DNA of 64,000 nt. It comes from Escherichia coli. Lineage in GTDB: Bacteria; Pseudomonadota; Gammaproteobacteria; Enterobacterales; Enterobacteriaceae. The position numbers and the translations under genes are program-made. Positions 54,421 through 55,102 of the stretch are shown piece after piece. A model generated the notes under the pieces. That model was not told the DNA's origin, did no database searches, and worked only from the letters and a program-made list of their open reading frames with translations. Numbering within the stretch: position 1 is the stretch's first letter; the number at the start of each line of letters is the position of its first letter. The stretch lies in the NCBI RefSeq assembly GCF_044324875.1, contig NZ_CP172185.1. The stretch is one strand, 5' to 3'.

Positions 54421-54525
54421 AACTCCTGAGCAGGCGGCACTATGCCGCTTTCATAGGAGTTCTGAATGCTGGTGCTTTCTGTATGGCATAACCATGCCTC
54501 TAACGGTTAAGTGCCTGCAGCACAT
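54421..54525. repeat. ~105 bp hairpin-containing repeat, copy A (overlaps the 3' end of the higA-like gene)
   Basis: ~90% identical to copy B at 56238-56342; contains an imperfect long hairpin. Confidence 0.6.
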
Positions 54526-54790
54526 GTTGCGGATCATTGGCAATCGCTCGCAGCAAAGCCTTTGCAGGCCCAGTCGGTGAACGTCGCCCCTGCTCCCAGT
54601 TACGCAACGTGTCTACGCTTACGGAAATAAGTTCGGCAAATTTAGATTGTGACAACCCTGAAGCGCGGCGTATTTCTTTGATTTTCATAGCATCAACTTC
54701 AAAAGTCCGTGAAGGGTGTCGCGTTCCTTCAATAATTTCATTCATCTGGGCCATGCTGTGAGTCAACCGCTCAAAAAGTGCCTTATCCAT
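54500..54790 (-). CDS. XRE-family HTH antitoxin (HigA-like)
   Basis: 96 aa; C-terminal HTH (IRRASGLSQSKFAELISVSVDTLRNWEQGRRSP); start codon abuts the upstream toxin stop. Confidence 0.75.
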   Translation of the reverse strand: MDKALFERLTHSMAQMNEIIEGTRHPSRTFEVDAMKIKEIRRASGLSQSKFAELISVSVDTLRNWEQGRRSPTGPAKALLRAIANDPQHVLQALNR

Positions 54791-55102
54791 TTACCACCTC
54801 GTATTTAACAACCGGAGCATTGATTTTTCCTGGGGAGACAGATCATCTTTAATACCCTTACGATAAATAAGCAGTAATCTGATCTCATAATGTTTAACCT
54901 GATGAAAGTAAATAACCCTGACACCAGCACGTTTCCCCTTTCCTCCTGACACCCATCGAACCTTTCTTAACCCACCAGTTTCAGGTATTACCTCACCATA
55001 GTCAGGATTCAAGGCCAGGAAAAACTGAAAACGACTGAATTCATCGTCGGTCAGCAGTTTTTGAACATCTTCAGTAAAAATTTCCGTTTCGATGAAGAGC
55101 AT
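54791..55102 (-). CDS. RelE/HigB-family toxin-like protein
   Basis: 103 aa; toxin-first gene order with the adjacent HTH antitoxin; basic C-terminal half. Confidence 0.7.
   Translation of the reverse strand: MLFIETEIFTEDVQKLLTDDEFSRFQFFLALNPDYGEVIPETGGLRKVRWVSGGKGKRAGVRVIYFHQVKHYEIRLLLIYRKGIKDDLSPQEKSMLRLLNTRW

Follow-up and report, generated by a model that had tools for sequence, protein, structure and literature searches.

The best described relative of the locus analysed here is the HigB2/HigA2 system of Vibrio cholerae (VCA0468/0469; PDB 5JA8, 5JAA and 8A0X), a toxin-first bicistron located in a superintegron cassette. The active site of HigB2 has been defined by mutagenesis as R51, R64, Y82 and K84, and the loop connecting strands β2 and β3 is disordered in the crystal (PMC5416850). 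A single operator of HigA2 has been footprinted, TGTACGC-N5-GCGTACA (PMC11006873). Related pairs are carried by plasmids: HigBA2 of Acinetobacter baumannii pAB120 (PMC5906591) and HigBA of Yersinia ruckeri pYR4 are experimentally toxic and stabilising, and function in plasmid maintenance. HigBA of Escherichia coli K-12 (YgjN/YgjM), SehAB of Salmonella and HigBA of Proteus Rts1 also have a toxin-first gene order and combine a RelE-superfamily toxin with an HTH antitoxin, but they belong to other subfamilies, whose antitoxins are ~138-142 aa long and contain a separate N-terminal dimerisation domain. Finally, relE-1/yiaG-1 (TA27) of AIEC NRG857c and UPEC CFT073 has been catalogued as a putative toxin-antitoxin pair that is missing from K-12 and HS; relE-1 was entered without a conserved domain ("NI"), and the pair was termed pathogen-associated (PMC7232551).

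Here we analysed a stretch of 64,000 nucleotides of an E. coli chromosome (the window), which takes in the yiiE-fabY interval. Two small ORFs with ATG starts lie next to each other on the minus strand: a 103-aa ORF at 54791..55102 (stop codon included), corresponding to a higB2-like toxin gene, and a 96-aa ORF at 54500..54790, corresponding to a higA2-like (NadS family) antitoxin/repressor gene. As read from the sequence, the TAA stop codon of the toxin gene (54791-54793) lies directly against the ATG of the antitoxin gene (54788-54790). The ORF list and the sequence thus bear out the abutting arrangement reported in the preliminary description, which had not given the strand. The pair is the same locus as relE-1/yiaG-1, whose abutting genes of 312 and 291 nt are located between yiiD (fabY) and fdhE; hence, the locus is already known, and it is an ordinary catalogued pair and not a new kind of system. 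Very probably, the two genes form a type II toxin-antitoxin operon of the V. cholerae HigB2/HigA2 type. The toxin-first HigBA-like module with a RelE-superfamily toxin and an XRE-HTH antitoxin that was originally proposed is supported by the results presented below, and is sharpened to the HigB-2/HigA-2 subtype. The value of this as a discovery is small, as the family, fold, catalysis, neutralisation and operator logic have been established for V. cholerae HigBA2. What the analysis adds to the catalogue is the subtype assignment and the distribution: 2636 of the 5426 complete E. coli genomes (49%), that of Nissle 1917 among them, carry the toxin gene, so that, contrary to the earlier suggestion, the locus is not pathogen-specific.

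The assignment of the toxin is based on direct comparison with characterised proteins. In a phmmer search of the PDB, the toxin matched V. cholerae HigB-2 chains only (residues 2-99, E 1.2e-19 to 1.2e-18), and the HigBA structures of E. coli, Shigella or Proteus Rts1 and SehAB were not among the matches although E values up to 10 were allowed. The toxin shares 42% identity with VcHigB2 and 44% with each of the plasmid HigB2 proteins of A. baumannii and Y. ruckeri (the antitoxins of these plasmids are ~40% identical to the one studied here), and it matches PHROG 5869 with an E value of 4e-27. Residues R49, R62, Y80 and K82 align with the catalytic R51, R64, Y82 and K84 of VcHigB2, and they are invariant across eight aligned sequences, which take in the functionally tested plasmid toxins of A. 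baumannii and Y. ruckeri. The plasmid pairs also share the gene order of the pair described here, which differs from them in being chromosomal, single-copy and not associated with a recognisable mobile element.

It should be mentioned that the profile-based evidence is less straightforward. The toxin scores 17.1 bits against Pfam PF06296 (RelE), below the cut-off of 27, whereas this model is passed by VcHigB2 (33.5), pYR4 HigB (31.8), AbHigB2 (48.5) and the Yokenella orthologue (28.6); the Enterobacter orthologue also fails (22), and no match to the Pfam HigB-like family was obtained for the toxin. The enterobacterial chromosomal clade thus appears to lie at the edge of the PF06296 model, and the assignment leans on homology, predicted fold and active site. 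The preliminary description had proposed an HMM search as a check, and had regarded the lack of any family assignment as a refutation. That outcome was narrowly escaped: the RelE profile stayed below its cut-off, but the direct comparison with HigB-2 is unambiguous.

Structural modelling agrees with this assignment. An AlphaFold model of the fused pair had a pLDDT of 84.6 and a pTM of 0.75; it was built with an artificial linker from an alignment of ten rows, and the HigBA2 structures were probably part of the training data. When this model was compared with the PDB using Foldseek, HigB2 chains occupied ranks 1-11, with TM(target) values of 0.75-0.85 and rmsd values of 1.7-2.5 Å, and RelE chains ranked below them with lower scores; the modelled toxin itself superposes on HigB2 chains with a TM of 0.80-0.85. 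Its predicted topology, β-α-α-β-β-β-α, is that of a RelE-type fold with a C-terminal helix, as in V. cholerae HigB2. The β2-β3 loop, which is glycine/lysine-rich in both proteins, is modelled with low confidence here (residues 51-60).

In the 96-aa protein, residues 37-74 form an XRE-type HTH (Pfam HTH_3, 40 bits versus a cut-off of 23), so that the C-terminal HTH noted previously holds, its position being central to C-terminal. For the NCBIfam model NadS (NF041265), whose cut-off is 60, its score of 60.4 bits is a borderline pass. HigA-2 in the PDB aligns with residues 5-89 (E 8e-9), and the C-terminal domain superposes on that of HigA2 with a TM of 0.77-0.83 (Foldseek). In the fused model, residues 1-30 have pLDDT values of 94-97, versus 49-70 when the antitoxin is modelled alone from the same ten species, although the fusion contains the artificial linker. 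The fused model has a helix at residues 3-21 and a strand at residues 28-31, and this strand is absent from the model of the antitoxin alone. The modelled segment would resemble the toxin-binding helix and strand at the N-terminus of V. cholerae HigA2, which likewise has its XRE HTH in the C-terminal part; the antitoxin studied here is, however, about 8-9 residues shorter at its N-terminus. Another difference concerns DNA recognition. According to an alignment mapped onto the published structure (PMC11006873), two of the four base-contacting residues in the recognition helix of VcHigA2 are kept (N and R), and the other two differ (R68>D and E71>R).

In most genomes, PGAP annotates the toxin as "hypothetical protein" and the antitoxin as "NadS family protein", a name that it also gives to the pYR4 antitoxin. 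As a consequence, the pair is invisible as a toxin-antitoxin system in the standard annotation of most of the ~2,600 complete E. coli genomes concerned, which the HigB2/HigA2 assignment corrects. Literature searches did not return a paper defining the name NadS, and searching by the accessions WP_000897305 and WP_000356395 gave no match. A nadS gene has been noted in the literature as expressed in K-12 BW25113; this gene is not the one described here, because K-12 does not contain the pair.

The region upstream of the toxin gene contains a perfect operator-like palindrome, GTACGTCA-T-TGACGTAC (O1, 55140..55156), which is the sole inverted repeat in the intergenic region. Its core and spacing, GTACG-N7-CGTAC, are those of the footprinted V. 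cholerae HigA2 operator, and this pattern occurs only once within the 64-kb window, where 0.01 matches are expected. O1 is kept in nine genera, with a symmetric G>A/C>T change in Klebsiella, Salmonella and Yokenella, and is a putative inverted-repeat operator of the kind that is characteristic of HigA-2/NadS antitoxins. Whereas a single operator has been footprinted in V. cholerae, a second operator-like site is present here: O2 (55107..55123), an imperfect copy of O1 that reads CTAAGCCAATGGCGTAT on the minus strand, ends 4 nt before the toxin ATG and is located 33 bp from O1, centre to centre. The AAGCCAATGGCGTA of O2 is kept across seven genera, and Trabulsiella has a near-perfect O1-type site, ATACGCCAATGACGTAC, at this position.

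A candidate promoter on the minus strand at 55122..55148 consists of the -35 sequence ATGACG (55143-55148), located inside O1, and the -10 sequence TACTCT (55122-55127). In the alignment, the same columns read TTGACG-16-TACTAT in Klebsiella, Salmonella and Leclercia, from which we infer that this promoter is conserved. A consensus scan returned an alternative promoter-like site on the same strand, TTGTTA-16-TATAAT (55104..55131; 10 of 12 matches). Only 1 nt separates the end of its TATAAT from the toxin ATG, and therefore a normal start site would be situated inside the ORF; moreover, this TATAAT is found in E. coli and Enterobacter only, which makes the site a doubtful promoter. Judged by sequence, the placement of the promoter is ambiguous between the two candidates, and we counted this against the HigB2/HigA2 explanation.

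The two-gene arrangement recurs in eight other enterobacterial genera, with proteins of 103 and 95-98 aa and genes that abut or overlap by 1 nt, and in ten assembled pairs the toxin is followed by an HTH protein of 90-98 aa. This recurrence implies that the pairing is not due to chance, and the adjacent, co-oriented small genes appear to be inherited as a pair, as is typical of type II toxin-antitoxin systems. The preliminary description had placed the module in an island. The interval is indeed variable, yet the same fabY-fdhE position is occupied in six other genera: Salmonella, Enterobacter, Leclercia, Klebsiella, Yokenella and Cronobacter. The shared position indicates an old chromosomal resident that was lost by some strains and not recent island cargo, and the absence of the pair at the locus in K-12 and O157 looks like such a loss. 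It is rare for a toxin-antitoxin module to keep a single chromosomal position in many genera, here with an antitoxin that evolves more slowly than its toxin, and the locus therefore offers a natural series for the study of toxin-antitoxin decay. The location between chromosomal core genes also distinguishes the E. coli pair from V. cholerae HigBA2.

In both genes, synonymous differences greatly exceed the non-synonymous ones. Between genera, the toxin shows pN values of 0.15-0.27 versus pS values of 0.63-0.96; these proportions, together with the closest pair of genera, were used in place of dS-based dN/dS values because synonymous sites are saturated at this distance. For this closest pair, Enterobacter versus Leclercia, the dN/dS of the toxin is 0.08.

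Based on the characterised relatives, the 103-aa protein would be a RelE-like ribosome-dependent endonuclease that cuts mRNA at the ribosomal A site, and the 96-aa protein a dimeric XRE-HTH repressor. The N-terminal ~32 residues of the antitoxin are predicted to be disordered when the protein is free, and to fold on the toxin as a helix plus a β-strand, rendering the toxin inactive. The antitoxin, with or without the toxin, would then occupy O1 and O2 across the promoter and repress the operon. The relative synthesis of the two proteins may be governed at translation. The toxin ATG in E. coli does not have a Shine-Dalgarno sequence comparable to that of the antitoxin, as judged from the sequence and the cross-genus alignment. 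The antitoxin gene is preceded by the strong GAGGTGG (54794..54800, minus strand), which coincides with the final sense codons of the toxin gene (R-W) and is invariant in the alignment of E. coli, Salmonella and Klebsiella, and its start would be translationally coupled through the TAA-ATG junction. The absence of a Shine-Dalgarno sequence for the toxin combined with a coupled antitoxin start implies that the antitoxin should stay in excess despite the toxin-first order. Most economically, the pair may be viewed as a chromosomal module, selfish or neutral, which about half of the strains have kept.

Some of these observations also fit a module that is domesticated or decaying, with a toxin of reduced activity or hardly any expression and a NadS/HigA2-like protein that mainly serves as a transcription factor. 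We consider this unlikely. The antitoxin is better conserved between genera than the toxin (79-88% versus 67-73%), which, like the toxin ATG without a Shine-Dalgarno sequence, is what domestication would predict. In one E. coli genome an IS1 element is inserted in the toxin gene and nadS is intact. In a widespread Salmonella lineage, an intact toxin ORF is located beside a frameshifted antitoxin gene, whose 81-aa form is devoid of residues 1-15; this could mean that the toxin is weak or silent. The natural series mentioned above includes this lineage. A possible target of the transcription factor would be the divergent gene for an alpha/beta-hydrolase (Abhydrolase_3) esterase at 55331..56239 on the plus strand (Pfam PF07859, 229.7 bits), which shares the length-conserved intergenic region with the pair: the order esterase-toxin-antitoxin with a spacer of 228-230 nt is kept in four genera (E. 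coli, Enterobacter, Leclercia and Klebsiella). However, the low dN/dS given above testifies to clear purifying selection on the toxin, whose length of 103 aa is constant in every genus compared, whose catalytic residues are invariant, and whose gene is covered for at least 80% in 2634 of the 2636 E. coli copies. Besides, the esterase association is confined to the syntenic locus, and is not found in Cronobacter, Salmonella, Xenorhabdus, Trabulsiella or on plasmids; co-inheritance therefore suffices to explain it. The esterase gene is a syntenic neighbour, and we have not counted it as part of the module.

A broader proposal, to which we give a slightly lower probability still, is that esterase, toxin and antitoxin constitute a functional three-gene unit at fabY-fdhE that predates the divergence of the genera, and that HigA2/NadS, which is unusually well conserved, controls more than its own operon. 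Candidate additional targets via O1/O2 would include the divergent esterase, and a candidate regulatory link to the neighbouring ribbon-helix-helix genes yiiE and yiiF would run through a shared sigma-54-like 18-nt motif. If this were true, the toxin would be a co-regulator rather than a killer.

Returning to the HigB2/HigA2-type operon, its closest functional precedents raise the question of whether it acts in addiction, killing segregants that lose the variable region around it and so stabilising that region; a stabilising role had been suggested in the preliminary description. Relatives with ~44-46% identity, pAB120 higBA2 (PMC5906591) and the pYR4 pair, stabilise plasmids, the V. cholerae hig loci are also counted among the stabilising relatives, and the family is common on plasmids (891 matching records). 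Nevertheless, such a role is very improbable at this locus and we found no support for it: the pair is missing from about half of the complete E. coli genomes, the adjoining segments 53192-54361 and 56238-58654 come and go independently of it, this spot lacks the integrase, tRNA or conjugation genes that would point to a mobile island, and the chromosomal position is common to several genera.

The other function suggested at the outset, phage defence, fares slightly worse. It would act by abortive infection, in which host shut-off leads to decay of the labile antitoxin and the freed toxin halts translation. A growing link between RelE-superfamily modules and defence has been described (Gerdes preprint, 10.1101/2025.01.28.635273), PHROG families are matched by the toxin as well as the antitoxin, and a few phage records contain homologues. 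These records amount to 9 of 50,697, however, and some of them are bacterial contigs. Nor did we find anything at the locus in support: the toxin does not match any PADLOC model and the antitoxin gives only generic HTH matches, so that the pair has neither the effector model nor the neighbourhood of a PADLOC defence system. Its neighbours are the esterase gene, small ORFs and core metabolism genes, with no defence genes among them, and in many genera the locus has a fixed place among core genes rather than in a defence island. SehA of Salmonella, which is HigB-like and reportedly inhibits RNase III, sets a precedent for a non-nuclease target (PMC12817084). The probability that the toxin studied here is a non-nuclease of this kind is close to negligible, given that SehA/SehB represents another HigBA subtype, whose antitoxin has 142 aa (96 aa here) and 46% identity to K-12 HigA, that the critical SehA residues Y53, D61, H88 and Y91, among others, do not map onto the toxin or onto its Salmonella orthologue, and that SehA is described as devoid of RelE-type active-site residues whereas the toxin studied here keeps all four HigB2 residues.

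The LT2 locus tags of SehAB, STM4030.S and STM4031, presumably place that system near fdhE. For this reason, and because it is described as HigB-like, SehAB was considered as the orthologue of the pair and rejected: SehB has 142 aa and is K-12-HigA-like, and the critical residues of SehA mismatch the Salmonella protein encoded at this locus.

Just 3' of the antitoxin stop codon, a terminator-like hairpin followed by UUUUAC is located at 54421..54461 on the minus strand (-30.9 kcal/mol, z -2.9, equalled by 0 of 200 shuffles in the RNA fold of 54405-54505, minus strand). A consensus terminator scan overlooked it because that scan requires at least five T residues.

The hairpin lies within the left copy of a 98-nt direct repeat (family D1; 54421..54518), which overlaps the final antitoxin codons. 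The right copy (56238..56335) begins at the esterase stop codon, and the copies are 88% identical with a spacing of 1817 bp. No known RNA family matched the repeat in an Rfam search of 53500-57000 (E up to 1). An integron attC site was considered and rejected: the AAC...GTT ends are similar, but the R''/R' consensus disagrees. The repeat is confined to this locus, and E. coli genomes contain no more than two copies each.

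The two adjoining genes that the preliminary description had assigned to a HigB/HigA-like toxin–antitoxin module, without giving a strand, correspond exactly to two minus-strand ORFs, one of 103 aa for the toxin (54791-55102) and one of 96 aa for the antitoxin (54500-54790), and the toxin stop codon TAA abuts the antitoxin ATG. The XRE-type helix-turn-helix expected in the 96-aa protein is present at residues 37-74 (Pfam HTH_3, 40 bits; cut-off 23). The RelE assignment expected of the toxin was not obtained by profile search: Pfam PF06296 'RelE' scored 17.1 bits, below its cut-off of 27, and the NCBIfam and PADLOC models gave no match. 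Within PF06296, the named member is HigB-2 (Gerdes preprint). V. cholerae HigB2 (VcHigB2), the Yokenella orthologue and the plasmid toxins from A. baumannii and Y. ruckeri exceed the cut-off; the toxins of E. coli and Enterobacter lie just under it. Judged from sequence, what is decisive for the family is the comparison with solved HigB-2 structures, because the only PDB sequences matched, even at E values up to 10, were V. cholerae HigB-2 chains (E 1.2e-19 to 1.2e-18, residues 2-99). The active site of HigB2 has been set by mutagenesis as R51, R64, Y82 and K84 (PMC5416850), and these columns are occupied in the toxin by R49, R62, Y80 and K82, which are invariant in an alignment of eight sequences that includes VcHigB2 as well as the plasmid toxins from A. 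baumannii and Y. ruckeri, on which experiments have been done. The HigB/HigA-like call was thus correct, if slightly under-specified, the subtype being HigB-2/HigA-2 by PDB homology.

At 54791-55102 there is an annotation gap in the ~2,600 RefSeq E. coli genomes, nearly all of which have the toxin as 'hypothetical protein' by PGAP and a few as 'RelE/ParE family toxin'; the former label is explained by the toxin falling below the PF06296 cut-off. In genome WP4-S17-ESBL-08, the toxin gene is split by IS1 and nadS is intact. The antitoxin itself scores 60.4 against the NCBIfam NadS model, at its cut-off of 60, and aligns over nearly its full length (residues 5-89) with V. cholerae HigA-2 (E 8e-9). 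HigA of the Y. ruckeri plasmid pYR4 is likewise named 'NadS' by PGAP, and this label therefore covers HigA2-type antitoxins like these.

For structure prediction, toxin and antitoxin from ten species were joined by a 25-residue Gly/Ser linker, and the E. coli fusion was modelled (mean pLDDT 84.6, pTM 0.75). In its toxin part the elements run b1-a1-a2-b2-b3-b4-a3, with low confidence in the beta2-beta3 loop (residues 51-60), which is disordered in the HigB2 crystal (PMC5416850). Foldseek against the PDB placed HigB2 chains at ranks 1-11 (TM 0.75-0.85, rmsd 1.7-2.5 A), followed by HigA2 chains, the HigA2 C-terminal domain (TM 0.77-0.83) and then RelE proteins. As a control, the antitoxin was predicted alone from the same ten species; its first 30 residues reached pLDDT values of 70, 59 and 49 per ten-residue block and lacked the strand, versus 97, 95 and 94 in the fusion, with a helix at 3-21 and a strand at 28-31. 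The HigA2 N-terminus folds upon binding into a helix and a strand (PMC5416850), and the in silico behaviour of the antitoxin N-terminus, fused versus alone, mirrors this in the models.

The toxin ATG and the divergent plus-strand esterase gene (55331-56239) are 228 nt apart; the only inverted repeat in this stretch is O1 (55140-55156), a perfect palindrome with the sequence GTACGTCA-T-TGACGTAC. The V. cholerae HigA2 operator, which has been footprinted and crystallised, is TGTACGC-N5-GCGTACA (PMC11006873); it shares with O1 the core GTACG-N7-CGTAC, which matches once in the 64-kb window versus 0.01 expected. O1 is kept in nine genera at an unchanged distance from the toxin start, and in Klebsiella, Salmonella and Yokenella it has changed symmetrically to ATACG...CGTAT, preserving the dyad. 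An imperfect copy (O2, 55107-55123; CTAAGCCAATGGCGTAT on the minus strand) lies 33 bp from O1, stopping 4 nt short of the ATG. Conservation extends to O2, and its Trabulsiella version is a near-perfect O1-type site. Of the base-contacting residues of HigA2, mapped from the HigA-2 alignment, N72 and R77 are kept in the antitoxin, but R68 is replaced by D and E71 by R; retention of two of four putative contacts fits a shared operator core with different flanking bases. A consensus promoter scan gave TTGTTA-16-TATAAT, in which a single nt separates the -10 element, itself not conserved, from the toxin ATG; another candidate, conserved across genera, has its -35 element (TTGACG) inside O1 and TACTAT/TACTCT as -10 element. 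Either way, the operator-like sites would overlap promoter elements. The E. coli toxin ATG has no Shine-Dalgarno sequence, and GAGGTGG from the last toxin codons precedes the antitoxin ATG, the antitoxin start being coupled to the toxin stop. A strong hairpin, then UUUUAC, directly follows the antitoxin stop.

The window is E. coli chromosome, an 851-bp region being 99.9% identical to many complete genomes, and the pair sits between yiiE/yiiF-fdhE and fabY (yiiD)-dtd. Of 5426 complete genomes, 2636 have the toxin gene as a single chromosomal copy (2430 copies at least 99% identical); it is absent from K-12 and O157:H7. The interval is a mosaic of three segments combined differently among strains: 53192-54361 with small ORFs, 54362-56241 with antitoxin, toxin and esterase, and 56238-58654 with a 617-aa ORF. 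The antitoxin-toxin-esterase unit is bracketed by a 98-nt direct repeat (54421-54518 and 56238-56335; 88% identical, 1817 bp apart), and could be excised through recombination between its copies. Neither of the two proposed roles found specific backing: for phage defence, PADLOC gave no match and the neighbourhood is not one of defence genes; for stabilisation of the island, the flanking segments come and go independently of the pair, which half of the strains have lost.

Between fabY and fdhE the pair also occurs in Salmonella, Enterobacter, Leclercia, Klebsiella spallanzanii and Yokenella; in Cronobacter it adjoins fdhE, and it is located elsewhere only in Xenorhabdus and Trabulsiella. The divergent esterase is found across a 228-230-nt spacer in four genera. 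The presence of the pair at this position is not recent. Compared with E. coli, the toxin shows 67-73% amino-acid identity, the esterase ~75%, and fabY and fdhE 88-94%; the antitoxin shows 79-88% in genera with the fabY-fdhE position and 69-72% in Xenorhabdus and Trabulsiella. The antitoxin is thus consistently more conserved than the toxin between genera, by a smaller margin in the latter two (orthologous loci L008-L019), which is the reverse of the usual description of type II pairs. In both genes synonymous sites are saturated and non-synonymous differences low. Together with the identity levels, this makes the pair a fast-evolving but selected resident of the fabY-fdhE position, one that E. 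coli strains have lost repeatedly. More distant relatives, at ~45% identity, are frequent on plasmids, where 891 records match; phage records seldom carry them.

Homology gives most support to a mechanism in which the toxin would act as a ribosome-dependent RelE-like mRNase, the antitoxin N-terminus would neutralise it, and dimeric antitoxin would repress its own operon through O1 and O2. It should be noted that strong toxicity should not be assumed, given both the better conservation of the antitoxin and an intact Salmonella toxin beside a frameshifted antitoxin. In the Salmonella enterica loci L007 and L006 (3313-3602), a 4-nt deletion after antitoxin codon 9 leaves an 81-aa ORF that lacks residues 1-15 and with them most of the helix predicted to bind the toxin; the toxin ORF, of 103 aa, is intact together with its catalytic residues. 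This toxin protein occurs in ~1000 index blocks, and the frameshift lineage is therefore widespread.

The pair is an ordinary, already catalogued toxin–antitoxin pair: the locus was listed as relE-1/yiaG-1 (TA27) in AIEC NRG857c and CFT073, with a position between yiiD and fdhE, no counterpart in K-12 or HS and a toxin without identified domain (PMC7232551). 'Toxin HigB-2 / Antitoxin HigA-2' among the genes listed for cattle-pasture E. coli isolates (PMC10304320) may be this locus. No experimental work on the E. coli pair turned up in our literature search. As an orthologue, SehAB of Salmonella was considered and rejected, being of a different subtype.

Each copy of the 98-nt repeat contains a long hairpin, without an Rfam match; the repeat is locus-specific, with at most two copies per E. 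coli genome, of which O157:H7 retains the right one alone and strain 2011C-4251 the left one alone. The 617-aa ORF (56408-58261, minus) had no match in Pfam or among PDB sequences and carries a CX5R phosphatase-like motif, CKSAKDR, reminiscent of SopB/IpgD effectors; intact here, the ORF is split or a pseudogene in strain AR_0067, and the O157:H7 annotation has two hypothetical genes in its place. Two small minus-strand ORFs between yiiE and the antitoxin gene (54203-54415 and 53833-54141) are hypothetical according to PGAP; the former encodes a Cys- and Arg-rich 70-aa product with a hit to PHROG 4499, a family of unknown function (E 8e-14), and the latter a 102-aa product that gave no matches. 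The 18-nt motif TGGAAAGCGCCTCGCAAA has three minus-strand copies (55224-55241, 53102-53119 and 52657-52674; at most two mismatches, 0.09 expected), with a spacing that agrees with sigma-54 GG-N10-GC. Two lie ~70-120 nt upstream of minus-strand genes, toxin and yiiE, the former kept also in Salmonella, Enterobacter and Cronobacter; the third lies below yiiE at the expected place of yiiF, with no gene identified downstream. That place is occupied by a plus-strand 240-aa ORF (51795-52517) that by its sequence looks like an IS3-family transposase OrfB, and the interval may therefore have been interrupted on its yiiF side by an insertion sequence in this strain.
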